A DNA stretch of 64,000 bases from an uncultured Selenomonadales bacterium (GCA_946536925.1 CAMNFC010000001.1:4064-68063); one strand, 5' to 3'; counted from the first letter of the stretch, positions 1 through 64,000 are shown. Numbers and translations: made by a program. Notes: generated by a model not told the origin, from the letters alone.

Positions 1-1258
1 TTTCGTAGTAGCCGCCCTTGGGCAATTTTTCCGTAACTTTTTCACCGTGCGCGTCGATGAACCAGGCCGTGCGACAAACAGCGTCAGGGAAACGGCTTTG
101 ATTGTGATAGTCGTCCTCCACGAGATAATATTTCCCTTTGATGCGCCAAGATTCGCGGGCACCGAGCATGGCGGCTTCGCGGCTGATGAACGCGTTCTCG
201 AAGCCGGGCAAATGTTTAATCAAGTAGCGTGCGATGTTCCTCATCATTTTGCGGCCGAAGGTGACGGCTTTGGAATAGCTCAGCGGGTCGGTCGCAGAAA
301 ATTTCACGGGGATTTCGGGGCAATTCATGCTCATCACGCCGTTTTTGCCGATGATTGTGTAGCCTTGCATGTATTCGGCTTCTTCTTGAGTGAGTTCGCC
401 CGTTTCCACGCCGCGCGCCATAAAATCTTCCAGCTTGTAGCGTTGTTTGCGGTGCATGGCTTCGGCGATTTCAAAATACGGCAACTTGGATTTGCACCAA
501 TCTTCTTTGAGTTCGACAGCGACATATTGATAAAGTTTTTCCGTGTCGATACCGCCCATCTCGAAGCGGAAGCTCAGCGGCTGATTGTTGCCGGTCTTCT
601 CATAGCCGCGTTCAAAGTCGACACCCGCATTTCTGGCAAGGTAAGCGTCGCCCGTCGCGTCGATGAAAGTTTTGGCTTTGACAGCCGCGAGCCCCGCAAT
701 CGTCTGGACGATGACCGCAGAAATTTTTTTGTTCAGAGCAAGAGAATCAACTACAACCGTTTGGTAAAGAATGTTAACGCCGGCCTCTTCGCACATCTCG
801 TCGTGAATCAGCGCGAGCGTTTCGGGGTTGTGCCACGTCTGCCACGTCACGCCGTCGAAAGGATCAATGCCGTGTGCGCGGAGCCTTTGCTTGAGCTCGG
901 TGACGTAAGGCGTGTCTGCATCGGGTGCGTGCGGATCCATGAACGGATAGACGCAACCCAAAACTCCCAAGCCGCCGAGCGCAACTCCGCGTTCAATCAA
1001 AACGACTTTGACGCCTTGACGCGCCGCGTTGACAGCAGCCGCCGTGCCCGAAGGTCCTCCGCCGCAAATGCAAACGTCAGCCGAACACAGCACGGGAATT
1101 TTTTTCCCCGCGTATTTAATCGTGTCGCCCGAATTTTTTTCGACAGCCTCCACACGATTTAATTCGTTCGAGCCGCTCAAGACGACACCGGCCGCCGTCA
1201 CGCCCGCAAGCTTTAACAAATCGCGCCGAGAGATCGGAAGGGAAAAACTTTGCGCCAT
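1..1258 (-). CDS. FAD-dependent oxidoreductase with twin-arginine signal; 3' end lies outside the window
   Basis: The minus frame is open from the ATG at 1258 to the window edge, so it has no stop and is absent from the ORF track. The N-terminus MAQSFSLPISRRDLLKLAGVTAAG is a Tat-type signal. CGGGPSGTAAA is a dinucleotide-binding motif. A GAGG RBS lies upstream. The listed 47..1162 + ORF is its antisense shadow. Confidence 0.75.
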   Translation of the reverse strand, partial: MAQSFSLPISRRDLLKLAGVTAAGVVLSGSNELNRVEAVEKNSGDTIKYAGKKIPVLCSADVCICGGGPSGTAAAVNAARQGVKVVLIERGVALGGLGVLGCVYPFMDPHAPDADTPYVTELKQRLRAHGIDPFDGVTWQTWHNPETLALIHDEMCEEAGVNILYQTVVVDSLALNKKISAVIVQTIAGLAAVKAKTFIDATGDAYLARNAGVDFERGYEKTGNNQPLSFRFEMGGIDTEKLYQYVAVELKEDWCKSKLPYFEIAEAMHRKQRYKLEDFMARGVETGELTQEEAEYMQGYTIIGKNGVMSMNCPEIPVKFSATDPLSYSKAVTFGRKMMRNIARYLIKHLPGFENAFISREAAMLGARESWRIKGKYYLVEDDYHNQSRFPDAVCRTAWFIDAHGEKVTEKLPKGGYYE

Positions 1259-1280
1259 GATTCTTTACCTCAAAAAAAAT

Positions 1281-3209: not shown

Positions 3210-3269
3210 AAAAAACCACACCCTCCTAGATTTAAAAACCCTAAAAAAAATTATGCGTGAAGCTGTCTA

Positions 3270-3298
3270 ATTATACTTTTAGAAAATTCAATCGTCAA
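3270..3298 (-). promoter_or_regulatory. sigma70-type promoter for the PTS operon
   Basis: On the minus strand this reads TTGACG, 17 nt, TATAAT, about 60 nt upstream of the PTS start. Confidence 0.5.
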
Positions 3299-3339
3299 TG
3301 ACAAAAAAATTTTTTCTTAAAGGCCGCTTCAATCTTTGC

Positions 3340-3367
3340 TTGACAAGCGGGCAAAACTCAATAAGAT
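3340..3367 (+). promoter_or_regulatory. sigma70-type promoter for the acyltransferase gene
   Basis: TTGACA, 16 nt, TAAGAT, about 40 nt upstream of the TTG start at 3406. Confidence 0.45.
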
Positions 3368-3405
3368 AAAAATGCTTTTCAATCTGATTCGGAAGGAAAA
3401 TTATT

Positions 3406-5905: not shown

Positions 5906-5973
5906 TAATCATTACTCCAATCTGTCCGTTATCCAATGCTGATTAATTCGGCCAATCGGGAAAAAATCCTGCG

Positions 5974-6002
5974 TTGTAGAAATTTCGCCGCCGTGATAAA
6001 AT
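5974..6002 (+). promoter_or_regulatory. sigma70-type promoter for the NYN-thyX operon
   Basis: TTGTAG, 17 nt, TAAAAT. It is followed by a GAAAGGAG RBS and the TTG start at 6028. Confidence 0.4.
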
Positions 6003-6027
6003 TATCGCGTCGGAAAGGAGTTTAAAT

Positions 6028-7767
6028 TTGATCGCACATGTTTTCGTTGACGCAGAAAATATTCCGCCGTCGGTCACCTTCAAAGTCGTCGAACATTTCG
6101 GCAAAGAGCACACGATAACCCGCGTCGACATCATCGCCAAAGAAGACACGTTGCCGGCCAAATATCGCGGCCTGGACAAAAAAATTTTTCGCGTGCAAAA
6201 TTGTTTCTACGGGAAAAATTCTGCCGACACGTGGCTTTGCTTCGAGATAGTTCGCGCCATCATCGACGAGCCCGAACTTGAACTGATTATCATCGTTTCC
6301 AGCGACAAAGATTTTCTTCCCGCGATAAAATTCGCCGCGGACTTCGACAAAAAAATTTTGATCGTCTCCAATGGCGCGGGTCACAAAACTTTGACCGAGC
6401 AGCTGAAAATTTTGGGCGTGGAGCCGGCCGCCGTCGAGCTCAAAGATTTCCGCGTGAATTTCGGCGCGTCCGAGAAGCTGGAAAAAATTTTGCCGCAACT
6501 GAGTTTCATGACGAAAAAATTTCTCTTCGAGCGCGAGGAGCAAATAAAATTCATCCTCGTCAAGCGCGACGAAAAATTTTTTGAAATGCCGTTCGTGCCG
6601 GGCATGAGCGTTCAAATGTTCGCCAGAATTTTGCGGGAGCTGAATATTTTTTTCGACGGCAGCGCGGTGAAAAATTTCATCGCCGAAAATTTTTTGAGAG
6701 TCGCGCGGAACAAAATTTTTTTCCAAACCGAGACGGAACTTTCGGAGCCAACGCCCGCCGAAGAGATCGAAAAATTTTTTTCGGAGCACGCGCAAGACAC
6801 GATAAAAATTTTCGTCAAGCAGAATTCGCGGCTGCACGAAATCCCTTTTGCGGACGGAATGCCCCTGGAACTTTTCGGGAAACTTTTGCGCGAGAAAAAA
6901 ATTATCGGCAAGGGAGCCTCGCCCGCACAGACCGCCGCAAAAAATTTGCTCAAAATCCGCGACGAAAAAGTTTTCCTGTGCAACGACGAGGAACAGCGCG
7001 CGGCCTTCGCAGACACGATTCAAAACGTCGAAGAATTTTTCAGCTTCCACGCGGGCAACGTCAAAAATATTTTGCTCAAGCACGCAAACAAAATTTTCGA
7101 GGTGCCCTTCGTCGACGGAATCAGATTGGAACTTTTCGGGAAACTTTTGCGCGAAAAAAATATCATCGGCAAGAGCACTTCCGCAACCGGCGTCGCCAAG
7201 AAAAATTTTTTGGACGTGCGCGACGGAAAAGTTTTCCTGTACGACGAAGACCGCCTGGCCGAACTTTACGCCGAGGCCACGGGCGACCTGGCCGCTTATT
7301 TCGACCGGCACGACAAAAAAAATATTTTCGTCAAGTTCAACGGAAAACTTTTTGAAATTCCCTTCGCCGACGCCATGCCGCTCAAACTCTTTGAAAAAAT
7401 TTTGCGCGAGAAAAAAATTATCGGGCGCAATTCTTCGGCGGTCAAAGTCGCGGCGCAAAGTTTGTTGGACGTGCGCGACGATAGAGTTTTTTTTATTCCC
7501 GAAGACGAGCTGGCCGCCGCGCAGGACGATTTGGAATTCGACGTCGACGATTTTTTCAACGAGCACGCGCTGCAAATAAAATCGATTTCGATCCGCCGCT
7601 ACGAAAAAATTTTTGACTTGCCGTTCGTGGAGGGAATGCCGCTGAAAATTTTCGGGAAACTTTTGCGCGAACGGAAAATCATCGACAGAAAAATTTCGGC
7701 GGAAAAAATCGTGGCGGAAAACAAACTCGAACTTCGCGGCGAAAAAATTTTTCTTGAGGAGGATTAA
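6028..7767 (+). CDS. NYN/LabA-like (PIN-fold) nuclease domain protein with five tandem ~85-aa C-terminal repeats
   Basis: The N-terminal ~130 aa (VFVDAENIP ... IIIVSSDKDFLPAIK ... ILIVSNG) matches the NYN/LabA acidic-residue pattern. It is followed by 5 diverged repeats of the form IFVK-x5-IFEIPFADGMPLELFGKLLREKKIIGK-x9-AKNLLDVRD-x-KVFL. Confidence 0.7.
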   Translation: MIAHVFVDAENIPPSVTFKVVEHFGKEHTITRVDIIAKEDTLPAKYRGLDKKIFRVQNCFYGKNSADTWLCFEIVRAIIDEPELELIIIVSSDKDFLPAIKFAADFDKKILIVSNGAGHKTLTEQLKILGVEPAAVELKDFRVNFGASEKLEKILPQLSFMTKKFLFEREEQIKFILVKRDEKFFEMPFVPGMSVQMFARILRELNIFFDGSAVKNFIAENFLRVARNKIFFQTETELSEPTPAEEIEKFFSEHAQDTIKIFVKQNSRLHEIPFADGMPLELFGKLLREKKIIGKGASPAQTAAKNLLKIRDEKVFLCNDEEQRAAFADTIQNVEEFFSFHAGNVKNILLKHANKIFEVPFVDGIRLELFGKLLREKNIIGKSTSATGVAKKNFLDVRDGKVFLYDEDRLAELYAEATGDLAAYFDRHDKKNIFVKFNGKLFEIPFADAMPLKLFEKILREKKIIGRNSSAVKVAAQSLLDVRDDRVFFIPEDELAAAQDDLEFDVDDFFNEHALQIKSISIRRYEKIFDLPFVEGMPLKIFGKLLRERKIIDRKISAEKIVAENKLELRGEKIFLEED

Positions 7768-7768
7768 A

Positions 7769-8392: not shown

Positions 8393-8457
8393 AATTTTTT
8401 GACAATCGTCCTACGTTCAAATATAATTTAAAAAATTTTTTGAAGGGAGCCTTCGAC

Positions 8458-8901: not shown

Positions 8902-8913
8902 GGAGCGGTCAAA

Positions 8914-9483: not shown

Positions 9484-9495
9484 GGAGAAATTTTT

Positions 9496-9981: not shown

Positions 9982-10002
9982 GCGTTGTAAAATTTTTTCC
10001 GT

Positions 10003-10081: not shown

Positions 10082-10096
10082 ACAAAGAAATTTCAA

Positions 10097-19091: not shown

Positions 19092-19268
19092 ACTTCTTTG
19101 TCCTTCAAAAATTTTTTAGGCGAATTATATCATGAAAAATTTTTGTCAACAACTTTCATTCGTCGTAAAAATTTTCTCAAAGGCGGCAGGATTAATCGCC
19201 CGCTTGCAGAATTCAAGTTCAAGTTTAAAATTGTTGGAAGATTCATTTGAATTACGGGAGGGCTTTCA

Positions 19269-24278: not shown

Positions 24279-25600
24279 AAGCTGGCTTTGTGAGTTTGGG
24301 CTGTGCAAAAAATTTGGTCGACACGGAAGTCATGCTCGGCATCATGCGCGAAAACGGAATCGAACTGACGGCCGAACCCGCCGACGCCGATATTTTAATC
24401 GTAAACACTTGCGCGTTCATTCTCTCGGCAAAGGAAGAATCCGTCACGACGATTTTGAATCTGGCCGAATACAAACAGAACGGCCGCTGCAAGGCGTTGA
24501 TTGCCGCGGGCTGTCTCGGTCAACTTTATAAGCGCGAACTTTTGGACGAGATGCCCGAAGTCGACGCGGTCATCGGAACGGGCGCGTGGAATCGAATCAT
24601 GGAAGCGATTGAAGAAGTTCTTTCGGGTCGCCGTGTGATTTTGATTGGCGAGAAAGAAATTATTTACGACTCGAAGACGCCAAGGCTGCGCACGACGCCG
24701 AAATATTTTGCGTACGTCAAGATTGCGGAGGGCTGCAACAATCGCTGCGCCTTTTGCTCAATTCCGCTCATTCGCGGGAAACAAATTTCTCGGCCGATTG
24801 AAGACGTCGTGGCCGAAGTCGAGCGGCTGGTTGAGCAGGGCGTCAAGGAAATAAATTTGATCGCGCAGGACACGACAGCTTACGGCACGGACATTTACGG
24901 CCGACCAAAACTCGTTGAACTTTTGCGCGCGCTCGTCAAGACCGACGTTCATTGGATCAGAATTCTTTACGCCTATCCAAAAAGATTTTCCGACGAGCTG
25001 ATTGATTTAATTGCCTCCGAAGAAAAAATTTGCAACTACGTCGACCTGCCGCTTCAGCACGCCTCGAACAAAATTTTGCGGAGGATGAATCGCCCCGACA
25101 CCCGCGAATCGATCGAGGCCTTGCTGAAAAAAATTCGCGCGAAAATTCCCGGCGTTGTCGTTCGCTCAACTTTTATCGTGGGCTTTCCCGGCGAGACCGA
25201 CGAAGATTTTTTGGAGCTGAAAAATTTTCTTCAGGCTCAGCGGCTCGACAAGGTTGGAGTCTTCACCTATTCGCGCGAGGAAAACACCGCGGCTTACAAT
25301 TTTTCCGACCAAATTCCCGAAGAGATCATGCAGGAACGCTACCACGATTTGATGAGCTTGCAAAGTTTGATTTCCCAGGAGCTTAACAAAGAACTCGAAG
25401 GCCGCGAGCTCGAAGTTTTGATTGAAGGTCGCGACGAGGAAACTTCCAAAGTCGTGGCCGGCCGTTCATATCGCGACGCGCCCGAAGTCGACGGGCTCGT
25501 TTACATCGAGAACGACGAATCGAGCAAGGCGGGCGATCTTGTTCGCGTGAAAGTTTTGGCGGGCTTCGTCTATGACATCGCGGCAGAAAAAATTTTTTGA
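24275..25600 (+). CDS. rimO: Ribosomal protein S12 methylthiotransferase
   Basis: N-terminal GFVSLGCAKNLVDTE, radical SAM motif CNNRCAFCSIP, and a C-terminal TRAM domain. The TTG start follows GGGAGG. Confidence 0.85.
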   Translation: MKAGFVSLGCAKNLVDTEVMLGIMRENGIELTAEPADADILIVNTCAFILSAKEESVTTILNLAEYKQNGRCKALIAAGCLGQLYKRELLDEMPEVDAVIGTGAWNRIMEAIEEVLSGRRVILIGEKEIIYDSKTPRLRTTPKYFAYVKIAEGCNNRCAFCSIPLIRGKQISRPIEDVVAEVERLVEQGVKEINLIAQDTTAYGTDIYGRPKLVELLRALVKTDVHWIRILYAYPKRFSDELIDLIASEEKICNYVDLPLQHASNKILRRMNRPDTRESIEALLKKIRAKIPGVVVRSTFIVGFPGETDEDFLELKNFLQAQRLDKVGVFTYSREENTAAYNFSDQIPEEIMQERYHDLMSLQSLISQELNKELEGRELEVLIEGRDEETSKVVAGRSYRDAPEVDGLVYIENDESSKAGDLVRVKVLAGFVYDIAAEKIF

Positions 25601-27764: not shown

Positions 27765-27807
27765 AAAATTTTTTCACGCTCGAAAAATTTTTTCGGGCGA
27801 TTTTTTT

Positions 27808-27836
27808 TTGCGCGGAGAAAAATTTTCTGCTACAAT
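27808..27836 (+). promoter_or_regulatory. sigma70-type promoter upstream of flagellin
   Basis: TTGCGC, 17 nt, TACAAT, about 50 nt upstream of the ATG. No TAAA-N15-GCCGATAA (sigma28) match is visible. Confidence 0.45.
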
Positions 27837-27887
27837 CAAAAAAATTTTTCGGAAAAGGATTTTGTCTCTTGCAAAGGATGATGCTTT

Positions 27888-30089: not shown

Positions 30090-33000
30090 TTATTCGAATT
30101 GTTGCGTCTGACGGTTTGCTTTGATGGTGGTGCCGTCGTCGAAGGAGAAGGTGACTTCCGCGCTGTTCTGGATATTGAGCGAGCCGCCGTCCTTGAAGCT
30201 GACGTTGATTGCGCCGGATTCAATAACCGTGCCGTCGAAGTCAATCTGATCGAGGGTCGCGCCGAGGTGGATGATATCTCCGTCGAGGCCGCCGAGGATG
30301 GTGTCGTTGCCGTTGCCCATCTCGTAGTAGAACTCGTTGTGGACATAGCCCGCGACCATCAAGTCGTTGGCGTTGCCTGCGCCGCCCCACATGCTTGCGT
30401 TGCCGTTGCCGCCAATGATCGTGTTGGCCACGTTGTTACCGGCCATTTCGACGTTGGCGGTGGAGCCTGTCGCGTCGATGACGGAGAAGTCGCCGACGAA
30501 TTCGACACCGTCGCTGTAGTCAGGAGCTTCGAGCCAGACTTTGGCGGAGGTGATGCTTTCGCCGATCTTGACGGTTGCGTTCTTCTCGGTTGCCGCGTAG
30601 AAGTCGACGTAGCTGTTGTTGACGGTGACTTCGCTTGCCGCAATCTGAGCGACGGTCTCGGTCTCGGTGCCGCGGTCGACGAGCATTTCTTCGCCTGCCG
30701 CACCAACGATGCTGACTTTTTCAGTCGCGCCGGTTTCTTGACCCTTGACAGCGATAGCAACTGCGCCGTTGACGACTTTGAGGTCGGTGACTTCGTTGCC
30801 GTCCGCCATGCCGAGGTTCAAGTTATCGAAGGTCGCCTGGTTGGTCGCGCCTTGCTCGATGAACTCGAATCCAACGATGGTGTTCTGTGCGCCGTTGTGG
30901 ATACCGATGTTGAAGAACTCGGTGGAGCCGACTTTGTCTTCGTTTACGCCGCTGGGGAGACCGATGAGGACGTTCTTGCCGCCGCCGCCGTAGAGCGAGC
31001 TTTCACCGATACCGGCAATCAGAGTTTCGTTGCCTTTGCCGCCCTTGAAGATTGTCGTGCCCGATCCGCCGATGAGCGTGTTGACCGCAGAGCCGATTGA
31101 AACGTCAGTGGAGCCGACCGCGCTCGGATAATCGAGATCTTCGCCGTCCACGTCGATTCCAACGTAGCCGCTGTAGTTGCTGAAGTCAATCGCGCCGTCT
31201 TTGGCCAGATAGTAGTTCGGGACGATATCGTCGTTATCGGTAACTTCGATTGTGCCGCCTTCTTCAGCGATAGCCGCGTAGAGAACTTCGGAGCCGTTGA
31301 TGAATCTCTGCTTGACGAATTCGCCGTCTTCGTCGGTTTCAGCCAACAAGGAGGACTTGCTGGAGGTGTCAACGATTCCGAGCACGCCGTCGGTGAAGGT
31401 GTAATCCAACTTGCCGTCGTAGCTCGTCACGTCGAAGATATCGCCCTCGAAGCCGCTGTGCAGATTCTCAACTGCGTCGCCTGCGCCGCGTCCGACGATG
31501 ATCGTTGCAGCTTCACGTCCGGCTGTGTCGTCCAGGATAACGGTGTCTACGCCGTCGCCCGTGTCGATTGTGTCGCCCGCGCCAGCAAAGACCGTATCGT
31601 CATAGAGGCCGGTAATGAGCGAGGAGGCTGCCTTGTTGCCGTCGTAGTTGCCCACGAGCACAACTTCTTCCGCAATAGCCGAAGCGTCGAATGTGCCGCC
31701 GTCCACATCGGCGAAGCCCACGAGCTGACCGAAGTCATCGCCGTAGTCGTCGTCGCCGCCTCTGTCTTTGTAACCGAACAGACGAACCATGGTGCCCGGC
31801 GTGCCGCTCACGTTGTTGACAGTGATTTGCGTCTTGCGGTCGGTGCCTTCGGGCAAGGTGCCTGTGCCGTCAGCTTCGCCGCGGTCGATTGCAAAGATCG
31901 AGCCGTTGTCGAAGACCAGCAAGCCGTCTTTGATTGCGTCTTCAATGTCTTCTTTGATGTAAGGCAGTTCAGGATCGTGAATGACGATGCCGCTCTTGGA
32001 GTTGATGACGTCGTAGTTTTCCAAGACGATGTTGGCATTGGCCGCCGCGTAGGTGATGATCTTGTCGATACCGTTGGAGGCCATGTCGATGGTCGTGGTC
32101 ATCGCGCTCTCACGATAGATAGCATCTTCGCGAGTTTCGCCGCGGATAACGATTGTGTCGTTGCCTGCGCCGGTGGTGATGGACACGGAGCCGTTTTCGT
32201 CGCGGCCGTCCATGATGACAGCGTCGCCCTTGTCGCCCAGGAGGATTGTCTTGTCGCCTTTGGCCGCCGCAGAGACGATAGCAACGTTGCCGCCCTCGTC
32301 GTTGAAGATAACGGAGTTGTCTTCCGTGTCGTCGAAGGTGTATTGAGCCGTGCCGCTCACGCTGCTGAGGTCTTGGCTGCCGTCGGTGGATTCAACGTAG
32401 TTTGCGCTGCGGTCGTTGACGCCCAAGGTGTTGAGGATGAAGTCGCGGTCGGTGTTGTTGTTGAAGATCGGGTGATCAGGATCATTGTCATAGGAGCTGC
32501 GGGCTTTGCTTCTGGTCTGGAAGCCGACAACTTCGATGTCTTCTTCAGCGATCTTGTAGCCGTCGTATTCCACATCGTTGACGGTGAGGGTTTCGCCCTT
32601 GGCAAATCCGTCGACAGTGAGGATAGCGTCTTCGTCCAGGTCGCCGACTTCGCCGTCCGCGCTGATTGTGAGTTCGCCGTCGTTGTCGTCTTCAACAGTG
32701 TAAGTTCTGCCGTTGACGGTGAAGGTGTCGGTGCCGCCCGTGGTGGTGAATTCGAAGACGGTTTCGGCGTCGGTGGTGGTGCCTTCAACGTAGCTGTTGA
32801 CAACGTCGCCGCTCTTGAGGCCGGTAACAGTGTCGAGAGCCGTGCCGGTGGTGGAGGTCGCTTTGGCAACTTGATCATCATCAGCATAGTTCACGGTCAG
32901 GACGTTGCCGTTGATGATGATGCCGCTGTCGTTTTCGTCGATGTCCGCGCTGCCGACAAAGCCGTACACGCCGTCAATCGTGACGTCGCCGTTGGTGGTG

Positions 33001-34943
33001 TTGGAGAATTTGGCCGTGCCGCCTTCTTGCTCGAAGTTGAATTCGATGTTGTCATCGGAAACAACTGCGTCTGCGCCGAGCGCGCCGAGAGTGAATTGCG
33101 AAGTATCAGCGTCAGTCAAAGCAACAGTGACGTAGCCGTCCTCGTCGGTGACGGTGGGAACAGCGATGTCGTTGCCGTTGTAGCGCAGGCCGATTCTGTC
33201 GTCTTCATCGGTGGGAACGGTGATTTGGTCGCCTTTTGCAGTAAAGACGAAGCGGACGATGTTGTCGCCCTCTTGGACGAGGTAGCCCTTGCCGCTGTAT
33301 TCGAATTCGTCGCCTTCGCCGTCGGTGACAGTGCCGCCGTTGCCGTTGTCGACATAGACGCCAGCGATTCCGCCGTTCACGCCGTCAACCGTGAAGACTT
33401 GAGCTTCATCAGCAACATGAACCTGAGGATAGGCGTTTGCGTTTGCGTCGGCTTTGCCATTATAGGTGAAGTCGCCGGTGTTGACAGAGACGTAGCCGTT
33501 GACAGCCGCGGAGGTGATGAGACCTGTAGCAGGAACATTGTAGCCGGCCTTGATGATCGGGATGCCGCCTTCTTCGTCGGTGACGTTGGGAGCGGTGACG
33601 GTCATGGTGTCTTTGTCGGAAGTGAAGAGGTCGAGGTTCTGGACGCCTTCAACATTGCCGTCTTCGTTGAAGTAAATCTTGATACCTTTTTTAACATTGC
33701 CGTTTTCGTCGGTGAAAGTAGCGCGGGTACCTTTGGAAATGGCGAAGTCAAATTGGGTATCGCCGATAGTGAGCGAAGCGGAAGCAGCAGTGACTTCAGC
33801 AACATAGCCATATTTGGTCTTGGTGACGGTGTAGTTGGAGCCGGTGATGATCTCGGAGCCCGCGAGGACTTCGTCGTCGTCATAGACTTTGAAGTTGGAG
33901 TCGGTTACGGTGATAGCGTCGCCGGTGTTGACCAGGACGAAACCGGCAACGGTGGTGCCGTTGGTGATGAAGTAAGCTTTTTCGTCATTGTCGCCTTCGT
34001 CCGCCGCGTATTTATAAGTGGTGGTGCCAATCTTGATAGAGCCGGACTCAACAGTAGCATCGGTGTCGGCGTTATCTGTCGTGGGCGGAGCAATCAAGGT
34101 AACATCATCAGCCGCTTTGACTTGAATGACTGCGCCGTCTTCAGCAGCCAGTTCGCTCAAATCCATAGCGAGTTTGCCGTCGGAGCCGTAGGTAAGAGTG
34201 AATTCGCCGGCTGCGGCGCGGACGTTCTTAATTTGAATGCTGTTGTCGTCAAGCGTGAACTTGTAATCGCCGTTGACAGCGACAATGCCGCCTGCGCTCT
34301 CGTCGGTGTCGATGGATTCAAGGGTTACGATGTAGCCGTTTTCATCGAGATTTAAGACACTTTCGGAACCGAAGCCGCTAAGGTCGGCAGTAATCTTGCC
34401 GTTTTCGGACGTGTACGAGTCATTATCACCGGCACTGTAGCCGCTCCAGATCATGAAGTGACCGTTGCCGCTACTCAAGTGAGCCTGCGTTGCGATGCCG
34501 TTGCTCAAAGCCACGTTCAAGCCGCTCGAGCCGCCGAATGCGAAGTTAACAGAGCCCTGATCGATTTGGAACGGTTTGTCGTCAGAGACAGCTTCAGTGA
34601 AGGAGAAGCCCGCAACCGAATTAACTTCGATTTCTTTGTAGGTGAGGTTGCCGTCCGCGCCGCCGTCTTCTTTCACGGTGACTTTGGTGGCCACGAAGCC
34701 GAGCCACACGCCGGTGTTGTTGCCGGTGAGCGGGTTGCCGTTCTTCCAGACGTATTCGGAGCCGTCGGTCTTGGTGACTTCCGTTTTGGCATCCAGAATG
34801 TTTTCGGCTTCTTCGTCTTGATAAGTTGCGGAGCTGTCGCCCGTGGTGTCGGTGTTGTTCACAAAGCCGCTGTCGGTGTCGTCTGACGGAGCAACAAATT
34901 CTTCAAATTCAAACTCGTCAAGGACGCTGAAAAAATCATTCAT
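30090..34943 (-). CDS. Giant acidic secreted repeat protein with C-terminal RTX-like Gly/Asp beta-roll repeats (putative T1SS adhesin)
   Basis: 1617 aa, rich in D, G, T and V, with no N-terminal signal peptide. 9-residue repeats occur near the C-terminus (GGSGTTIFKGGKGNETLIAGIGESSLYGGGGKNVLIG and GGNGNASMWGGAGNAND). GGGAG RBS. Confidence 0.7.
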   Translation of the reverse strand: MNDFFSVLDEFEFEEFVAPSDDTDSGFVNNTDTTGDSSATYQDEEAENILDAKTEVTKTDGSEYVWKNGNPLTGNNTGVWLGFVATKVTVKEDGGADGNLTYKEIEVNSVAGFSFTEAVSDDKPFQIDQGSVNFAFGGSSGLNVALSNGIATQAHLSSGNGHFMIWSGYSAGDNDSYTSENGKITADLSGFGSESVLNLDENGYIVTLESIDTDESAGGIVAVNGDYKFTLDDNSIQIKNVRAAAGEFTLTYGSDGKLAMDLSELAAEDGAVIQVKAADDVTLIAPPTTDNADTDATVESGSIKIGTTTYKYAADEGDNDEKAYFITNGTTVAGFVLVNTGDAITVTDSNFKVYDDDEVLAGSEIITGSNYTVTKTKYGYVAEVTAASASLTIGDTQFDFAISKGTRATFTDENGNVKKGIKIYFNEDGNVEGVQNLDLFTSDKDTMTVTAPNVTDEEGGIPIIKAGYNVPATGLITSAAVNGYVSVNTGDFTYNGKADANANAYPQVHVADEAQVFTVDGVNGGIAGVYVDNGNGGTVTDGEGDEFEYSGKGYLVQEGDNIVRFVFTAKGDQITVPTDEDDRIGLRYNGNDIAVPTVTDEDGYVTVALTDADTSQFTLGALGADAVVSDDNIEFNFEQEGGTAKFSNTTNGDVTIDGVYGFVGSADIDENDSGIIINGNVLTVNYADDDQVAKATSTTGTALDTVTGLKSGDVVNSYVEGTTTDAETVFEFTTTGGTDTFTVNGRTYTVEDDNDGELTISADGEVGDLDEDAILTVDGFAKGETLTVNDVEYDGYKIAEEDIEVVGFQTRSKARSSYDNDPDHPIFNNNTDRDFILNTLGVNDRSANYVESTDGSQDLSSVSGTAQYTFDDTEDNSVIFNDEGGNVAIVSAAAKGDKTILLGDKGDAVIMDGRDENGSVSITTGAGNDTIVIRGETREDAIYRESAMTTTIDMASNGIDKIITYAAANANIVLENYDVINSKSGIVIHDPELPYIKEDIEDAIKDGLLVFDNGSIFAIDRGEADGTGTLPEGTDRKTQITVNNVSGTPGTMVRLFGYKDRGGDDDYGDDFGQLVGFADVDGGTFDASAIAEEVVLVGNYDGNKAASSLITGLYDDTVFAGAGDTIDTGDGVDTVILDDTAGREAATIIVGRGAGDAVENLHSGFEGDIFDVTSYDGKLDYTFTDGVLGIVDTSSKSSLLAETDEDGEFVKQRFINGSEVLYAAIAEEGGTIEVTDNDDIVPNYYLAKDGAIDFSNYSGYVGIDVDGEDLDYPSAVGSTDVSIGSAVNTLIGGSGTTIFKGGKGNETLIAGIGESSLYGGGGKNVLIGLPSGVNEDKVGSTEFFNIGIHNGAQNTIVGFEFIEQGATNQATFDNLNLGMADGNEVTDLKVVNGAVAIAVKGQETGATEKVSIVGAAGEEMLVDRGTETETVAQIAASEVTVNNSYVDFYAATEKNATVKIGESITSAKVWLEAPDYSDGVEFVGDFSVIDATGSTANVEMAGNNVANTIIGGNGNASMWGGAGNANDLMVAGYVHNEFYYEMGNGNDTILGGLDGDIIHLGATLDQIDFDGTVIESGAINVSFKDGGSLNIQNSAEVTFSFDDGTTIKANRQTQQFE

Positions 34944-35197
34944 TTAAAAAGTACTCCCTTCTTTAGCCGCGTCTTTTTTTGGAAAGTTGCGGCTCTCTGA
35001 AAAAAGATTCGTGAAACAGATTGAACCCCTTTTTGGATAATCCCAAAAACCAAAACAGCGTCGGATTCGGGCGAACCCTACACGATTCGTCGAACCCAAA
35101 CGCCACAGCCCATGACCTTGCGCCATTCGTTCCCCAACTGCCGGCGAAGATCCCCCTTGTAACAGCCGCGTCCACCAAACGCCCCGCTGTCGGGCGC

Positions 35198-35226
35198 AGA
35201 ATAACGCAGGAAGCAATTTTTGTCAA
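35198..35226 (-). promoter_or_regulatory. sigma70-type promoter for the giant RTX-like gene
   Basis: On the minus strand this reads TTGACA, 17 nt, TATTCT. The -35 element overlaps the PAP2 stop codon. It predicts a ~250-nt leader. Confidence 0.4.
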
Positions 35227-45412: not shown

Positions 45413-48262
45413 TCATTGCTTCTTGAGCTTGGAGCCGACGATTGCGTACGTTGAATCGTTGACGTGAAAAGTCGTGGCGGAAAAATCTTTGAGCGTGACG
45501 GAGCCGCCGTCGAAAGAAAATTTCACGGCGTCGTTCTTGTACGTGGCTTTGAAGTCGAGGCTGTCCAACGTGAGAGTGTCGTTGTCGTCGAAGCCGAAGA
45601 TGATATCTTTGCCCGAATCGCAAAAGAATTCGTCGGCCTGTTCACTGCCCCAGAGCGAATCATTTCCTGCGCCGCCGCTGACCGTCGTTTTCCTTCCAAA
45701 AACTTTAATCGTGTCGTTGCCCGCGCCGCCGTCGACAGAAAGATTTCCTCCGCGAGACGTGATAATATCTTTGCCGTCGCCGCCGCCAATCAACGCGCCG
45801 TGGTAATTGCCGGCCGCGAAATTAAATTCGTAACCGCTGCCGTCGACGACAACTTTTTTATCGAGTGTGCTTGCCTTCAACGTAATTATTTTGTCTGTGA
45901 CGGAAAGCCCGTTTCGAGATTTCACGCCCTCGACCGTCGCCAACGTCTTAACAGATTTTTTGGAATAGTTGATGGCGTTGTCTGCGAGCGTGTAGCCGGC
46001 CGTCGTCGTCTGCTTATAAGTTGCCGTCGATTCACTGAGGCTCCAGGCTTTTGAAGTCGAAGTTTTTGTGACGTCGGAGCCGAGCTTGAGGGTGTAGCCG
46101 TCGCTGATTGTAACTTCCTTCTTGTTCAGCGATGCATCCGAAACCGTGACAACTTTTTTCTTCAAGCTGAGCCCGTCGACAGATTTCACGCCCTCGATCG
46201 TCGCCAAAGTCTCGACAGATTTTTTGGAATAATTGATGGCGTTGTCTGCGAGCGTGTAGCCGGCCGTCGTCGTCTGCTTATAAGTTGCCGTCGATTCACT
46301 GAGGCTCCAGGCTTTTGAAGTCGAAGTTTTTGTGACGTCGGAGCCGAGCTTGAGGGTGTAGCCGTCGCTGATTGTAACTTCCTTCTTGTTCAGCGATGCA
46401 TCCGAAACCGTGACAACTTTTTTCTTCAAGCTGAGCCCGTCGACAGATTTCACGCCCTCGATCGTCGCCAAAGTCTCGACAGATTTTTTGGAATAATTGA
46501 TGGCGTTGTCTGCGAGCGTGTAGCCGGCCGTCGTCGTCTGCTTATAAGTTGCCGTCGATTCACTGAGGCTCCAGGCTTTTGAAGTCGAAGTTTTTGTGAC
46601 GTCGGAGCCGAGCTTGAGGGTGTAGCCGTCGCTGATTGTAACTTCCTTCTTGTTCAGCGATGCATCCGAAACCGTGACAACTTTTTTCTTCAAGCTGAGC
46701 CCGTCGACAGATTTCACGCCCTCGATCGTCGCCAAAGTCTCGACAGATTTTTTGGAATAATTGATGGCGTTGTCTGCGAGCGTGTAGCCGGCCGTCGTCG
46801 TCTGCTTATAAGTTGCCGTCGATTCACTGAGGCTCCAGGCTTTTGAAGTCGAAGTTTTTGTGACGTCGGAGCCGAGCTTGAGGGTGTAGCCGTCGCTGAT
46901 TGTAACTTCCTTCTTGTTCAGCGATGCATCCGAAACCGTGACAACTTTTTTCTTCAAGCTGAGCCCGTCGACAGATTTCACGCCCTCGACCGTCGCCAAC
47001 GTCTTCTCCAAAGTGTCGTAAGTTGCGGTGGAGCCGTTTAAGTTCCATTTAGGAATTTCTTCGCCATCGATGTTGACGGTTTCCAAATCAGCCGCGCCTT
47101 CCAAAGTTATCTTGCCGCTGCCGACCGTGACGATGATATTGTCGCCGACTTTTTCGGCGGAATATGTGCCGGTGCCGCCGCCGATTTGGAGCGTGTCGTC
47201 CTCACCGAAGCCGCGAATCAAATCGTTTCCGTCGCCGTTCTCATAAAGAGTGGTGGTCTCCAGGCCGTCGTTGTCAATGATGTCGTTGCCTTTGCCGCCG
47301 CGAATTGTGCTGTAACTTCCTGGGGCATAGGCCATGTCGATATAGAAATCGCCGGTGCTGACGTGGATGGTGTCGTTGCCGTCGCCCGCGTCGATGGATG
47401 CCTCTTTGCCCCAATCGAAGATTAAATCGTTGCCCGCGCCGCCGTTGATCGAACTGTAAGCACCGCCGTTGGCAATGGTGTCGTTGCCTCTGCCGCCAAG
47501 GATCGTGTGATACTCAACGCTAGTAGCGTCCTCGTGATAGATTAAATCATTGCCCGCGCCGCCGTCAGACAAAATCGCGTTACAACCTGGGGAAAAGGAA
47601 ATCGTATCATTGCCCGCGCCGCCGTCGATTGTCACGTTGGAGCTCCAGTTGTTGTAAATTTCGTCGTTGCCCGCGCCGCCGTCAATCAACATGTCCGAGG
47701 CGTAGGCTTGGATAGTGTCGTCACCCTCGCCTGCGTCGATTGTCACGTTCGAGCTCGAGTCGTGGGAATAAATCGTATCGTTGCCCGCGCCGGCGTTGAT
47801 CGAAACGTTGTCGCCGTAGTTTTCGATGGTGTCGTTTCCTTCACCGCCAAGGATTGTCACGTCGGGGGGACCACTCTTTGGATAGCCTGAACCACCATTC
47901 GCAATGTAGTCGTCGCCGGCTCCCGCGTCGATTGAGGCGTTGTCGCCGTTGTTTTTGACGGAGTCGTTGCCTGCGCCCCCGTTGATTGAAACTTGAGCGG
48001 CTTGATTGTCGATGTAATCATTACCTTTGCCCGCATCGATTGTAGATTTATCGCCCGCGCTGTAGTTGCGAATTTCGTCATTGCCTGTGCCGCCGACGAT
48101 TGAGGCGTTGTCGCCGTAGTTATAAATGTAATCTTTGCCTCCGGCGCCGTCGATTGTCACGTTGACAGGATTTTCCGCAGAATAGTATCCACCGTTTGTA
48201 ATGGTGTCGTTGTACGCGCTGCCGCTGACCAAAGTGTTTGACGTGTAGTTTGTGATATCCAT
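45413..48262 (-). CDS. Large secreted repeat protein: N-terminal GxGNDxI beta-helix/RTX-like repeats, 4.5 copies of an 88-aa module, and a C-terminal RTX-like tail
   Basis: 950 aa from the ATG at 48262 (GGAGA RBS 8 nt upstream). No signal peptide. About 18 GGAGND/GKGND repeats. Four identical 88-aa repeats. C-terminus GGAGNDTIK ... GGAGNDSLWG. Confidence 0.7.
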   Translation of the reverse strand: MDITNYTSNTLVSGSAYNDTITNGGYYSAENPVNVTIDGAGGKDYIYNYGDNASIVGGTGNDEIRNYSAGDKSTIDAGKGNDYIDNQAAQVSINGGAGNDSVKNNGDNASIDAGAGDDYIANGGSGYPKSGPPDVTILGGEGNDTIENYGDNVSINAGAGNDTIYSHDSSSNVTIDAGEGDDTIQAYASDMLIDGGAGNDEIYNNWSSNVTIDGGAGNDTISFSPGCNAILSDGGAGNDLIYHEDATSVEYHTILGGRGNDTIANGGAYSSINGGAGNDLIFDWGKEASIDAGDGNDTIHVSTGDFYIDMAYAPGSYSTIRGGKGNDIIDNDGLETTTLYENGDGNDLIRGFGEDDTLQIGGGTGTYSAEKVGDNIIVTVGSGKITLEGAADLETVNIDGEEIPKWNLNGSTATYDTLEKTLATVEGVKSVDGLSLKKKVVTVSDASLNKKEVTISDGYTLKLGSDVTKTSTSKAWSLSESTATYKQTTTAGYTLADNAINYSKKSVETLATIEGVKSVDGLSLKKKVVTVSDASLNKKEVTISDGYTLKLGSDVTKTSTSKAWSLSESTATYKQTTTAGYTLADNAINYSKKSVETLATIEGVKSVDGLSLKKKVVTVSDASLNKKEVTISDGYTLKLGSDVTKTSTSKAWSLSESTATYKQTTTAGYTLADNAINYSKKSVETLATIEGVKSVDGLSLKKKVVTVSDASLNKKEVTISDGYTLKLGSDVTKTSTSKAWSLSESTATYKQTTTAGYTLADNAINYSKKSVKTLATVEGVKSRNGLSVTDKIITLKASTLDKKVVVDGSGYEFNFAAGNYHGALIGGGDGKDIITSRGGNLSVDGGAGNDTIKVFGRKTTVSGGAGNDSLWGSEQADEFFCDSGKDIIFGFDDNDTLTLDSLDFKATYKNDAVKFSFDGGSVTLKDFSATTFHVNDSTYAIVGSKLKKQ
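45951..47006. repeat. Tandem repeat, 4 x 264 bp, essentially identical copies, inside the RTX-like CDS
   Basis: The anchor string ACAGATTTTTTGG recurs at 45951, 46215, 46479 and 46743, a period of 264. The translated copies are identical apart from about 1 substitution. Confidence 0.9.
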
Positions 48263-53330: not shown

Positions 53331-53421
53331 AAAAATTCTCCTTCCGCCGCAAAATTTTTACCAGAATATATAGAGAAAAATTTTTTGTGTCAAGCGTGCG
53401 TCGAGAGGCTTTAAAAAAATC

Positions 53422-53450
53422 TTGACGTTTCGCCGGCCATAAAATATACT
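53422..53450 (+). promoter_or_regulatory. sigma70-type promoter of the liv operon
   Basis: TTGACG, 17 nt, TATACT, about 45 nt upstream of the livJ start. Confidence 0.5.
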
Positions 53451-53495
53451 TTCGAAAAGTTTTTAACGCAAAAATTTTTTTGGAGGTCGAGAGAA

Positions 53496-55152: not shown

Positions 55153-55221
55153 AAAATAATTCGTGACAACCCGACGACAAAGTTTTAAAATCTCCTTGAA
55201 AATTTTCGAGGAGGTTTTTTT
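55150..55221 (+). repeat. Junction cassette copy A (~72 nt, carries RBS)
   Basis: TGAAAAATAATTCGTGACAACCCGACGACAAAGTTTTAAAATCTCCTTGAAAATTTTCGAGGAGGTTTTTTT. Near-identical copies lie at 56273 and 57404. Confidence 0.85.
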
Positions 55222-56289: not shown

Positions 56290-56345
56290 CAACCCGGCGA
56301 CAAAGTTTTAAAATCTCCTTGAAAATTTTTCTAGGAGGTTTTTTT
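56273..56345 (+). repeat. Junction cassette copy B
   Basis: Same sequence as copy A with 3-4 differences. It spans the 3' end of GT9 paralog 1 and the RBS of paralog 2. Confidence 0.85.
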
Positions 56346-57420: not shown

Positions 57421-57476
57421 CAATCGGGCGATAAAACGTTAAAATCCTTCTTGAAAATTTTCGAGGAGGTTTTTTT
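57404..57476 (+). repeat. Junction cassette copy C (immediately upstream of livH)
   Basis: TGAAAAATAATTCGTGACAATCGGGCGATAAAACGTTAAAATCCTTCTTGAAAATTTTCGAGGAGGTTTTTTT, then the ATG of livH. Confidence 0.8.
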
Positions 57477-62066: not shown

Positions 62067-62070
62067 CTTT

Positions 62071-64000
62071 ATGGAAAATTTGAAACGAATCGACCAACTG
62101 CGACGAAGTTTGACGGAACTGCGCGAGTGCGGCAATCTGTTAAAACAAAATCTCGGCGACATCAACGACGTTATCGACGAAAACAAATTTGCCAAGTCCG
62201 CGAACTTGAAGATATGGACCGATAATATTTCCGCGTGGCTGAAAAAATCTGTCGAATGCGCAGAGTTGTATGTTGACATTTTCAAAGAAGCGTTGCCCGA
62301 AAAATTTTCCGACGTCGAAAAAAATTTGGACGCGGAAGAAAAAAGAATTCGCGAGGAAAGCGTCTTCGGCCTGGCGGAAAAATTTTTGCTGTTCGTCACG
62401 GCTTCGGCCGACCTGAAAAAAATTTTGCACGAACACCAAGCCGCGCTGAAAAAATTGCTCGCGAGGAAACGCAAAAACGATCAGCTCAAAGCCGCCCTGG
62501 AGCCCTACGCAAAATTTTTTATCGCCACGAAAGAAACCGCCGTTGCTAAAAAATTTTCGGCGGGCAAAGATCTCAGTGACTTTTTCGGCGACGAATTCAT
62601 CGGCCGCGGGCTTTTCGGCAGCGAGCTGACGGAAGCGACGCCCGAAGAAATTTTGGCGGAAAAACCCGTTCGTCGGCGCAGAAGAAAAATTGAGCCCGAA
62701 GAAAAAATTCCCGAGCCGCCCAAAAAGAAAGATGACTTCAAAAAAATTATTCGCGGCGCGCTGCTCACCGAGGACGACTTGAGCGCGTGGGAAAAAATTT
62801 TCGCCATCGACAAAAACGACCGCAACAAAGAATTTTCCTCCGTCCTCTTCAAGCGCGACTTCAAAAAGAACGCCGAGATTCTCAAGCCGGTTTTGCGTTA
62901 CGTTTCGGGCGCGGGGATTTTGTCGTGGCCGGCCTTCCGCCTGAAAAAAATGTCCAAGGAAGTCATGGAAAGTCTCGCGCAAATTTTGTTCAACCGCGGC
63001 TACATTCAAAAATATTCTTTCGGCGAACGCGGAAATTTTTACGGCCTGACGAGAAAATTTTTTGAGTTCGTCAAGACCGACAGCGGCAAAAAATTCGTCG
63101 ACGCCCGCCGCAACAAAATCGAGCTGGAAAATATTTGCTTCCTGGCCGAAAAGATGAAGAACGCCCTGGTTCGCGCGATTTACTGCCACCTGTACGCCGT
63201 CGAGTTCGACCACGGGAGCGAGCTGTCCGCCATCGAGTTTTCGCCGGCTGCTTTCGCTGCTTTCCGCGCGGAATTTTCCGGCAACGGCAAGCGCGATTTG
63301 ATTCTCGGCTGTTTTTGGGAGAAGGTTGAGGAGTGCGAAACTTTTTTGCGGCGGGAGAAAAATTATTTCAAGAAGGCCAAAAATTTTGATCGCGTGTTCG
63401 TGGCGGGACTGAGCCTCAATCACGCTGAAAAAATTTCCGTCGCGTTGGAAAAAATTTTCGCGGAAGATTCCCCTGCGGCCGACGCGAAATATCTTTACGA
63501 TTTCGGCACGGATGAATTTTTCATCGCGGGCACGGCGGAAAAAATTTCGGCGGAAAAAATTTGGAGCGACACGCCGCCCGAAGATGATCCCGCGCCCGAA
63601 AAAATTCCCGAAGCCGAAGAAGAGCCCGAAGAAATTTCCGTTCCGCAAAAATCTTCGGCACCCGCGCTCGACGCCAACGTCAAAGAAAAAATTTTGCACG
63701 ACGTGAAAAAAATGCTCCTGGCCAAAAAATTTTTCTGCGCGGCGGCTTACCTCAAAGCCCAAAGTTTGGAAGTCAAAGAGGCCGAGACGCTTTATCGGCA
63801 GCTGGCTTTCGCGTTGGACGACCCGCTCCTCAAAGAAGGCTACAGCGCGGATTCGATTTCGATTTTGGCCACGACCGACGACGACGACTTCAACGAGGCA
63901 TTGATTACTGCCGCCGCCGTCCGCGCGATTTTCTACAACGATTTTGGCGTCGATTACGGCGTTCAAGCTCTGCACGCGCTGACGAAAAGTTTTGCTCTCG
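62071..64000 (+). CDS. Large hypothetical protein (more than 643 aa; continues beyond window)
   Basis: The frame is open from ATG 62071 (GGGAGG RBS, 4 nt after the livF stop) to the window end, so it has no stop and is absent from the ORF track. It has a coiled-coil N-terminus, a basic RRRRRK patch and a Pro/Glu-rich linker. No family is recognised. The 62140..63975 minus ORF is its shadow. Confidence 0.6.
   Translation, partial: MENLKRIDQLRRSLTELRECGNLLKQNLGDINDVIDENKFAKSANLKIWTDNISAWLKKSVECAELYVDIFKEALPEKFSDVEKNLDAEEKRIREESVFGLAEKFLLFVTASADLKKILHEHQAALKKLLARKRKNDQLKAALEPYAKFFIATKETAVAKKFSAGKDLSDFFGDEFIGRGLFGSELTEATPEEILAEKPVRRRRRKIEPEEKIPEPPKKKDDFKKIIRGALLTEDDLSAWEKIFAIDKNDRNKEFSSVLFKRDFKKNAEILKPVLRYVSGAGILSWPAFRLKKMSKEVMESLAQILFNRGYIQKYSFGERGNFYGLTRKFFEFVKTDSGKKFVDARRNKIELENICFLAEKMKNALVRAIYCHLYAVEFDHGSELSAIEFSPAAFAAFRAEFSGNGKRDLILGCFWEKVEECETFLRREKNYFKKAKNFDRVFVAGLSLNHAEKISVALEKIFAEDSPAADAKYLYDFGTDEFFIAGTAEKISAEKIWSDTPPEDDPAPEKIPEAEEEPEEISVPQKSSAPALDANVKEKILHDVKKMLLAKKFFCAAAYLKAQSLEVKEAETLYRQLAFALDDPLLKEGYSADSISILATTDDDDFNEALITAAAVRAIFYNDFGVDYGVQALHALTKSFAL

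Follow-up and report, generated by a model that had tools for sequence, protein, structure and literature searches.

A lineage-specific excess of TpA-free A/T blocks in Quinella-like bacteria and its possible maintenance as A-tract DNA structure

What could make one palindromic octamer, AAAATTTT, recur in genes and spacers alike along an ordinary stretch of bacterial chromosome? The question arises from a 64,000-nt segment of an uncultured Selenomonadales bacterium (GCA_946536925.1, CAMNFC010000001.1:4064-68063), referred to here as the window, in which a sequence-only reading had remarked on the abundance of the octamer and offered A-tract geometry, a methyltransferase or other recognition motif, and replication slippage as candidate causes. 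We found that the octamer reflects a real, lineage-specific bias at the DNA level, one that favors TpA-free A/T blocks and is not a codon-usage artefact. As to its cause, we tentatively infer a structural basis and a reader, and consider it somewhat short of evenly likely that A-tract DNA structure is selectively maintained. Our main data were the window itself and loci of 5-21 kb from uncultured relatives. The window was annotated with our own gene calls (59 genes, 94% of the window), which were checked against Pfam and against calls on related contigs. It has a G+C content (GC) of 50.2% and the gene content of an ordinary chromosomal housekeeping region, including PTS components, ThyX, hisA/hisF, a MiaB-like enzyme, Fmt, RuvB, flagellin, SHMT, CoaBC, RpoZ, Gmk, DapF, and a branched-chain amino-acid ABC transporter, as well as one tRNA and the tmRNA; this content excludes an origin in a mobile element. 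The MiaB-like protein shares 83-87% identity with its counterparts in Quinella and in uncultured rumen Selenomonadaceae metagenome-assembled genomes (MAGs), and a sheep-rumen metagenome (GCA_001684375.1) contains short pieces that are 100% identical to the window.

A class of TpA-free A(n)T(m) blocks

The window contains 140 copies of AAAATTTT, its most frequent 8-mer, against 0.95 copies expected for independent, identically distributed (i.i.d.) bases, which agrees with the chance expectation of about one copy per 64 kb given by the sequence-only reading. Its estimate of a few hundred copies was too high, and of its two local counts, nine copies in 6001-7000 proved right while 20001-21000 holds two copies instead of three. 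The remaining top 8-mers are all A(n)T(m) words, and the reverse arrangement, TTTTAAAA, is present in only 6 copies. Coding copies were compared with two nulls, i.e., a per-gene synonymous-codon shuffle that keeps the protein and its codon usage (300-500 shuffles), and a codon permutation that keeps composition but loses order. The 110 copies observed in coding sequence exceed the synonymous shuffle 3.2-fold (34.9±4.8, maximum 47 in 300 shuffles; z about 15) and the permutation 17 times (6.2±2.6), the i.i.d. expectation being 0.8. Within genes, codon choice thus contributes a factor of about 3 to the excess and amino-acid order about 5-fold more. The codon-shuffled comparison had been proposed with the original observation as the test for a trivial by-product of codon usage or protein composition, and the octamer is clearly not such a by-product. 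Moreover, its density is 7.8 per kb in intergenic DNA (40.7% GC by the first gene calls) vs 1.8 per kb in coding sequence, where observed/expected is about 140 relative to the i.i.d. model.

Markov models of order 0-6 predict 0.95, 17, 26, 49, 101, 121, and 132 copies of AAAATTTT, respectively. The maximal-order check thus gives no excess of the octamer over its own 7-mers. Since AAAATTTT is fully predicted by those 7-mers, the excess is a property of the A(n)T(m) family as a whole and not of the exact octamer, with the anomaly sitting in the 5-6-mer context; indeed, one-mismatch neighbors of AAAATTTT are enriched 2-9-fold over a first-order model. In all, the window (1..64000) contains 731 TpA-free A(n)T(m) runs of at least 6 bp, amounting to 8.7% of its bases; 322 of them are at least 8 bp long and 140 contain AAAATTTT. 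The dinucleotide odds ratios are 1.63 for AA/TT, 0.39 for TA, and 1.68 for CG. Runs consisting only of A and T are long as well, with 150, 133, 118, and 92 runs of 8, 9, 10, and 11 bp observed vs 52, 26, 13, and 6.5 expected. An A/T string without a TpA step is necessarily A(n)T(m), and 32-52% of the A/T runs of 8-11 bp are of this form, vs 0.5-2.7% expected. When the pattern of A/T and G/C positions was kept and the A/T bases were redrawn i.i.d., 6 copies of AAAATTTT resulted; the addition of first-order transitions within runs gave 36 copies, but over-predicted A8/T8 (229 vs 41 observed). Homopolymers of at least 5 nt comprise 693 A/T runs vs 9 G/C runs of 5-9 nt plus a single G11. With A/T gathered into long blocks and both TpA and long homopolymers avoided, the sequence is thus funneled into A4-6T4-6. 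AAAATTTT is the commonest 8-mer of a genome-wide class of A(n)T(m) blocks, TpA-free and about 6-11 bp long, which matches the structural definition of an A-tract, i.e., B*-DNA that is rigid and bent and whose minor groove is very narrow (PMC8476142). The class is degenerate and its own reverse complement, so that strand skew is impossible by construction, and it is not a defined, non-palindromic, skewed word of the strand-polarized type (Chi, KOPS, uptake sequences). The A/T junction is weakly centered within tracts, and the sense strand is A-heavy, n exceeding m in 350 tracts and falling below it in 195.

As the sequence-only reading had stated, all three codon phases are used (59/23/26, encoding the peptides KIF/KIL, KNF/ENF, and xKFx). 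Codon choice depends strongly on the neighboring bases: ATT makes up 90% of Ile codons when TT follows but 7% when GG follows, and AAT accounts for 81% and 4% of Asn codons, respectively. To quantify this dependence, we related the share of the A/T allele at two-fold third positions to the length of the A(n)T(m) run which that allele would make. In the window, this share is 0.14, 0.35, 0.41, 0.56, and 0.65 for potential tract lengths of 1-5 bp, 0.75, 0.83, 0.85, 0.88, and 0.86 for 6-10 bp, and 0.82 for 11 bp or more, and the synonymous-shuffle null tops out at 0.67. The curve is the same in eight other loci with a strong signature, whereas it is flat at about 0.5-0.6 in L004/L005, a pair of relatives in which the signature is weak, and flat or declining in outgroups of mid, low, and high GC. 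Codon choice is therefore steered cooperatively by tract length up to about 9 bp, or approximately one helical turn.

The bias also reaches the proteins. Among MiaB orthologues, the combined content of Lys, Ile, Phe, and Asn (K+I+F+N) is 0.21 in the ingroup and 0.20 in outgroups, yet tract-capable tripeptides number 4.6 vs 2.0. An A6T6 tract at 25587..25598 (+) is formed by the last codons and the first stop-codon base of the window's MiaB-like gene, which ends in AEKIF* where relatives have AERI, and tracts were gained by amino-acid replacement at two further sites (RNF to KNF and DAVL to NKIL). Amino-acid adjacency is thus shifted by pressure at the DNA level, and the proteins of the clade are partly shaped by a DNA-level constraint. 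Together with the excess over the shuffle null and the greater richness of intergenic DNA, this bears out the earlier suggestion of a cause in DNA rather than in protein. A further consequence concerns the opposite strand, where stops in the codon-aligned antisense frame number 1 per 100 codons. The abundance of long antisense open reading frames (ORFs), which had been ascribed to the palindrome, is explained by TpA depletion and by how seldom TTA, CTA, and TCA codons are used; the palindrome is only one symptom. Such signature-driven ORFs will mislead gene callers; for example, a 601-aa ORF at 6022-7827 (-), antisense to a gene for an NYN-domain protein, could be miscalled as a gene.

Distribution and conservation of the tracts

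To place the signature phylogenetically, 80 loci surrounding MiaB orthologues were surveyed. In the Quinella-like clade, AAAATTTT is present at 2-33 copies per 10 kb (observed/expected 11-310) across a range of 40-56% GC. In Selenomonas, Mitsuokella, Megamonas, Pectinatus, Anaerovibrio, Schwartzia, Veillonella, and Acidaminococcus, it is found at about expectation where this could be judged and in at most 3 copies per locus elsewhere, outgroup loci of high GC having just 0-3 copies each. Mapped onto the MiaB tree, the signature arose once, at the root of the Quinella clade, within which two sister members, L004 (Quinella sp. 1Q5) and L005, have a clearly weaker form of it. The A-tract signature is therefore lineage-specific and independent of GC. 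Among 2.9 million viral contigs, a scan for pairs of A5T5 tracts with G/C flanks, a pattern so strict that it is missing in its exact form from the window itself, returned 23 matches, none with a Quinella-type dinucleotide profile except a doubtful 1-kb piece.

Variation between close relatives was obtained by exact-protein look-ups, which led to metagenome contigs 93-99.9% identical to the window that were aligned over 39.4 kb of it; three such look-ups had no match. Third-codon and non-coding sites were counted, each site being scored once if at least one relative differed; the data are metagenome assemblies, unpolarized, and overlapping relatives are not independent. Of A/T sites in tracts of length 1, 2, and 3, 60/799 (7.5%), 72/1198 (6.0%), and 59/1176 (5.0%) were variable, followed by 23/721 (3.2%) at length 4 and 26/534 (4.9%) at length 5. 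Variability then stepped down to 4/653 (0.6%) at lengths 6-7, with 5/428 (1.2%) at 8-9 and 0/356 (0%) at 10 or more. Tracts of at least 6 bp taken together had 9/1437 variable sites (0.63%) vs 240/4428 (5.4%) in shorter ones (p = 7e-20), while A/T runs of at least 6 bp interrupted by TpA were unprotected (30/690; 4.35%) and G/C sites varied at 341/8524 (4.0%). Since part of the window is nearly invariant, the comparison was also stratified by gene, and gave an odds ratio of 0.12 (p = 1e-10) for variation inside tracts of at least 6 bp. The same two-fold codons varied at 2/528 sites in tracts vs 65/1218 outside them (first 24-kb set of relatives), and non-coding A/T sites at 1/431 in tracts vs 23/741 elsewhere. 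Pure A or T runs of at least 6 bp were protected equally (1/126, as compared to 7/1028 in tracts with a junction), and no AATT core is therefore needed. Protection was also observed in other species pairs, namely L003/L026 (96.5% identity) and, at 78-82% identity, L007/L008/L009 and L006/L011, but was absent in the weak-signature pair L004/L005 and in L005/L026. These results show that, taken as a class, the sites are conserved among related genomes more strongly than neutrality would predict, and that protection vanishes where the signature is weak.

Several side observations came from the same comparisons. Around the MiaB-like gene (14000-36000 compared with L001-L013 and L026), no neighbor is shared within ±10 kb, despite the identity of the MiaB-like proteins, which points to a very fluid genome organization in the clade; in a synteny-based comparison of orthologues, only MiaB and a few stray genes were comparable. 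The same-species contigs L113 and L114 share the upstream genes and lose synteny downstream of 25837. Another contig, L123, is virtually identical to the window over the first 9.5 kb of the aligned 1-11073 (0-1 third-position differences per gene), but differs at about 20-30% of third positions in 9496-10978, adjoining the tRNA and tmRNA genes; the abruptness of this divergence looks like the boundary of a recombination mosaic. The CpG excess of the window rises to 1.9 in relatives and varies along with the A-tract signature within the clade, being 1.37-1.43 in the weak pair, G/C blocks alternating CG and GC steps (CCGCCG, CGCCGC, CGGCGG) and avoiding GG/CC. Considering that CpG is fairly high in some outgroups too, it may be partly a separate trait.

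Possible causes

Of the three candidate causes initially offered, A-tract geometry fits best. Purifying selection for A-tract shape or mechanics would maintain the blocks through combined pressures, i.e., gathering of A/T into blocks of about one helical turn, a near-ban on TpA, and intolerance of very long homopolymers. The underlying pressure acts on DNA, and is felt by synonymous codons, amino-acid neighbors, spacers, promoters, and ribosome-binding regions alike. The property preserved could be the narrow minor groove, rigidity or bend, or resistance to melting. A candidate reader would be an abundant nucleoid protein that recognizes the minor groove or DNA shape, or the effect might be exerted through chromosome mechanics. 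Alternatively, the benefit could lie in A/T-rich DNA that resists melting, does not mimic -10 boxes, and is not bound by TpA-preferring proteins. The trait would have arisen at the base of the Quinella clade and been relaxed in one sub-lineage. A bolder version, which we consider unlikely, is that Quinella has a genome-wide DNA-shape code in which a dedicated system reads A-tracts and nearly a tenth of base pairs are under purifying selection, synonymous sites and amino-acid order in proteins included. A protein of the nucleoid or chromatin might do the reading, or the system might serve to discriminate self from foreign DNA; it would have been lost in Quinella sp. 1Q5 and its sister MAG. If so, this pair would offer a natural on/off comparison for the long-debated function of bacterial A-tracts.

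Over-representation of A(n)T(m) and clustering of A-tracts are known in prokaryotes (Davenport and Tümmler 2010, PMC2843746; Tolstorukov et al. 2005, as cited in PMC4060949 and PMC2843746), as are Mrázek's surveys of periodicity (PMC3431218, PMC3940949). The present case is of this known type: it consists of TpA-free runs of A followed by T, over-represented in coding and non-coding DNA, and lends itself to the same interpretation through a narrow minor groove, rigidity, and nucleoid proteins. It differs in its strength, its tract length, its restriction to one clade, and the lack of helical phasing. The octamer is about 150-fold over-represented at 50% GC and 8.7% of bases lie in tracts of at least 6 bp; the preferred length is 8-11 bp instead of 4-6, and phasing at 10-12 bp is absent. 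Its onset is sharp, in one clade, with secondary loss in a sub-lineage, and silent-site variability is about 10-fold lower, with length-cooperative codon choice. A full-text search for the octamer gave no relevant-looking paper and we found none that mentions the feature; the Quinella genome paper makes no mention of GC content, homopolymer, methyltransferase, or nucleoid. A-tract effects are usually small and confounded with codon usage, and whether they are selected has long been an open question. The effect in Quinella is extreme and passes protein-preserving nulls, and its length threshold matches the physical definition of an A-tract. Moreover, the strong/weak contrast among close relatives means that the cause can be sought by comparing existing MAGs and tested in population metagenomes. 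In practice, k-mer binning and phage-host prediction will be affected for this abundant rumen taxon, which is linked to low-methane animals.

A related rationale comes from the xenogeneic silencers H-NS, MvaT, and Rok, which prefer TpA steps over A-tracts; Rok motifs are depleted in the core genome of B. subtilis (PMC6212790, PMC8476142). Adaptation to such proteins would favor an A-tract arrangement, which is poorly bound by TpA-preferring proteins and does not mimic -10 boxes. However, the silencer idea covers the avoidance of TpA and not the gathering of A/T into blocks.

Several points weigh against selection on A-tract structure. The 10-11 bp periodicity for which the sequence-only reading had recommended a search gave no signal: spectra of the A/T indicator, of AA/TT, and of tract junctions in the window are at noise for periods of 9-12 bp, and the strongest peaks, at about 19-21 bp, lie within multiple-testing expectation. 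A seeming odd/even pattern in the tract positions arose from the rounding of centers that fall on half-integers. Tract junctions are clustered, neither regularly spaced nor evenly spread, and a classic role in phased curvature or packaging is thus unsupported. Both the preference and the low variability would be produced by a mutation or repair bias that depends on context and has the same relation to length. The only direct hint of selection is weak: at sites covered by at least 5 sequences, 8/8 tract variants were singletons vs 177/262 other variants (p = 0.06), several of the eight coming from one contig. Genes that look highly expressed (flagellin, RTX-like) show less of the signature, as would be expected of a weak background force that yields to translational selection. 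Finally, the evidence comes from one 64-kb window and short loci with home-made gene calls.

The main rival to structural selection, possible but on balance unlikely, is a neutral, lineage-specific, context-dependent mutation bias or biased mismatch repair. Errors in or beside A-tracts would be resolved towards A:T, while TpA and mixed steps would decay, and tracts would accumulate and look conserved without any function. The shift of the whole dinucleotide and pentamer spectrum is what such a bias would leave, an order-4 Markov model already giving 101 of the 140 octamers, and so are the enriched one-mismatch neighbors and the weaker signature of genes that strongly prefer C-ending codons. 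The speed with which the signature changes between close relatives (weak in L004/L005) likewise agrees with it, since a single altered repair or polymerase gene could suffice, and the level of conservation fits an equilibrium preference of 90-95%, whatever its cause. There is also a precedent for oligomers raised genome-wide by a lineage-specific enzymatic bias, in all frames and in spacers: in E. coli, according to work reportedly published by Bhagwat and McClelland in 1992, very-short-patch repair goes with CTAG depletion and CCWGG excess. That repair, however, acts in a defined context of 4-5 bp, whereas the dependence in Quinella extends over about 9 bp and is set by the absence of TpA, not by sequence. 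Mutational context usually reaches ±1-2 nt, as opposed to about 9 bp with a threshold at 6, and same-length runs interrupted by TpA are not protected. To our knowledge, no described process reduces base substitution in A-tracts by a factor of about 10. A/T runs are favored but G/C homopolymers purged, which is not general slippage, and G/C bases beside tracts are not hypervariable (4.2% variable vs 4.9%). The latter figures were set aside as a test of mutation by edge extension, since influx and outflux must be equally small at equilibrium and the test is non-discriminating. The signature is also upheld across 40-56% GC, and tracts are concentrated at functional positions: the 25 nt preceding start codons (-25..0) contain 24 tract junctions vs 2-9 per 25-nt bin within genes (3-4 times denser), the tracts lying directly 5' of GGAGG or between GGAGG and the start codon, and the 25 nt following stop codons are similarly dense.

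This placement, 5' of Shine-Dalgarno sequences, in the spacer to the start codon, and after stop codons in operons, is in turn what selection on RNA would produce. UpA-free A(n)U(m) islands could keep G/C-rich mRNA unstructured for the ribosome, S1, or Hfq, and avoid endonuclease cuts at UpA; avoidance of UpA is a known theme at the RNA level, and the A-heaviness of sense strands agrees with it. We nevertheless regard an origin in RNA as improbable. The A-heavy bias is expected anyway from coding for Lys and Glu, 110 of the 140 copies of AAAATTTT lie in coding sequence in all phases, and tracts occur in apparently untranscribed promoter spacers and upstream regions of the window. Furthermore, A-runs in mRNA promote ribosome sliding and should carry a cost. 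Strand tests cannot tell selection on DNA from selection on RNA for a class that is self-reverse-complementary. The presence of the motif in promoters and ribosome-binding-site spacers had already been noticed in the sequence-only reading, and it stands, the promoter spacers among them being recognized by eye.

Far less probable is a specific site, i.e., AAAATTTT or an AATT core targeted by an orphan methyltransferase or by an uptake or recombination system. The model for it is HIP1 (GCGATCGC) of cyanobacteria, a palindromic octamer 15-300-fold over-represented (PMC5861425, PMC4390886). The resemblance is considerable: in both cases, a hyper-abundant palindrome, about 150-fold in excess here, is found in genes and spacers and in all frames, lineage-wide though with exceptional members of low abundance. 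In both, its conservation from genome to genome argues for selection, and its function is possibly related to the nucleoid. However, HIP1 is one exact word holding the sites of two orphan methyltransferases, whereas the Quinella signature is a degenerate structural class that requires no core and is not sharply bounded as a word. The octamer has no excess over its 7-mers (140 vs 132), its neighbors are enriched, the junction is only weakly centered, and any n and m, even pure runs, are equally enriched and protected, so that conservation is found at the level of the class and not of one word. Genuine restriction palindromes are depleted (GATC 0.45, CCGG 0.5, GGCGCC 1 vs 20, CTCGAG 2 vs 22). 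These findings together run counter to the methyltransferase or recognition motif that had been offered as a cause. Site bias due to restriction-modification was rejected on similar grounds, as AATT-containing words are enriched, the opposite sign to avoidance.

Replication slippage, the other cause offered at the outset, was likewise rejected as an expansion of simple sequence: lengthening is limited to A/T, G/C homopolymers of at least 5 nt being almost absent, and the tracts are less variable than their surroundings, not more. Thermodynamic stacking was also considered, using nearest-neighbor energies; the favored steps within A/T or within G/C are more stable, but mixed steps disagree, the gain is tiny, and the host is a mesophile. 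Finally, a trivial by-product of Lys/Ile/Phe/Asn-rich proteins preferring AAA, ATT, and TTT is scarcely credible, for although AAA (75%), GAA (69%), ATT (47%), and TTT (44%) are common codons and the synonymous null already reaches about 35 copies vs 0.8 i.i.d., 0 of 300-500 shuffles reached even half of the 110 observed, intergenic DNA is richer than coding, and outgroup MiaB proteins of the same K+I+F+N content have under half the tract-capable tripeptides.

Local settings of the tracts and other features

The densest gene encodes the NYN-domain protein (6028..7767, +), with 15 copies of AAAATTTT and 19 AAATTT cores vs 7.1 under the synonymous shuffle and 2.7 under codon permutation. The 5' part of a gene for a 1729-aa protein with no Pfam match (62071..63999, +) has 11 copies of AAAATTTT and 21 cores vs 7.9 and 2.7. 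Among intergenic regions, a cluster upstream of the flagellin gene (27765..27849) comprises A4T6, A5T6, T9, A5T4, and A7T5 with G/C blocks of 7-11 bp between them; the spacing from center to center is about 17-22 bp, hence there is no helical phasing. The divergent region at 19092..19268 has three tracts (A5T6, A5T5, and A5T4), of which one lies between the TTGACA and TATAAT boxes of a putative promoter and another separates the TATAAT box from the minus-strand gene's Shine-Dalgarno sequence, both assignments being made by eye. In a second divergent region (53331..53495), tracts lie directly 5' of both Shine-Dalgarno sequences, e.g., AAAAATTTTTTTGGAGG.

Two genes stand out by their lack of the motif, as does the leader of one of them, in agreement with the sequence-only reading. 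The gene for a 1617-aa repetitive protein (30090..34943, -) has no tract, with 0 AAATTT cores vs 0.3-0.5 under the nulls and an AA/TT odds ratio of 1.20 (elsewhere 1.5-2.0); since its K+I+F+N content is normal at 22%, A/T-ending codons are avoided. Its leader of 279 bp (34944..35222) has no tract of A3T3 or longer. The gene for an RTX (HemolysinCabind) protein (45413..48262, -) has no AAAATTTT, 2 AAATTT cores vs 0.4-0.7, and an AA/TT odds ratio of 1.38. The motif is missing from both RTX-like genes because of their own C/G-ending codon usage, under which the AAATTT null is only 0.3-0.7. The 1617-aa protein has no Pfam match, and 79% of its first codon positions are purines. Within the RTX gene, tandem repeats of 264 bp (45917-47004) are 97.6-99.2% identical to counterparts in a related contig, in offset BLAST matches, and are probably behind the repeated 16-mers of the k-mer count.

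A special local use of AAAATTTT, which is not a general explanation, is a predicted hairpin, CTCCTTG-AAAATTTT-CGAGGAG followed by U7 (55198..55221, +), in which the octamer forms the loop and apex and which stops at the start codon. Copies within 55180-55230, 56303-56353, and 57435-57485 precede three consecutive genes, namely two GT9-like glycosyltransferase paralogues and then the first branched-chain amino-acid permease gene, the latter two copies preceding 56346 and 57477. Their minimum free energies are -18, -14.2, and -14.5 kcal/mol (z-scores -5.0, -3.4, and -2.6), and the Shine-Dalgarno sequence GGAGG is predicted to pair with CUCCU. The structure resembles an intrinsic terminator placed at a start codon and, judging from the folding model, could be a translational or transcriptional attenuator.

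The remaining observations concern other short words. Relative to maximal-order Markov expectation, the ratios are 0.45 for GATC, 0.50 for CCGG, and 0.30 for CTAG, while CATG is enriched (1.76). Among restriction-type palindromes, observed/expected counts are 0/8 for AGCGCT, 1/20 (0.05) for GGCGCC, 2/22 (0.09) for CTCGAG, and 7/29 for TTCGAA, a depletion that suggests several active or past restriction-modification systems. The G11 homopolymer at 57048-57058, the sole G/C run of at least 7 nt in the window, lies in one of the GT9-like genes (56346-57401) and is a candidate phase-variation switch of a surface-glycan gene; its length is also 11 in the 98.9% identical contig L125.

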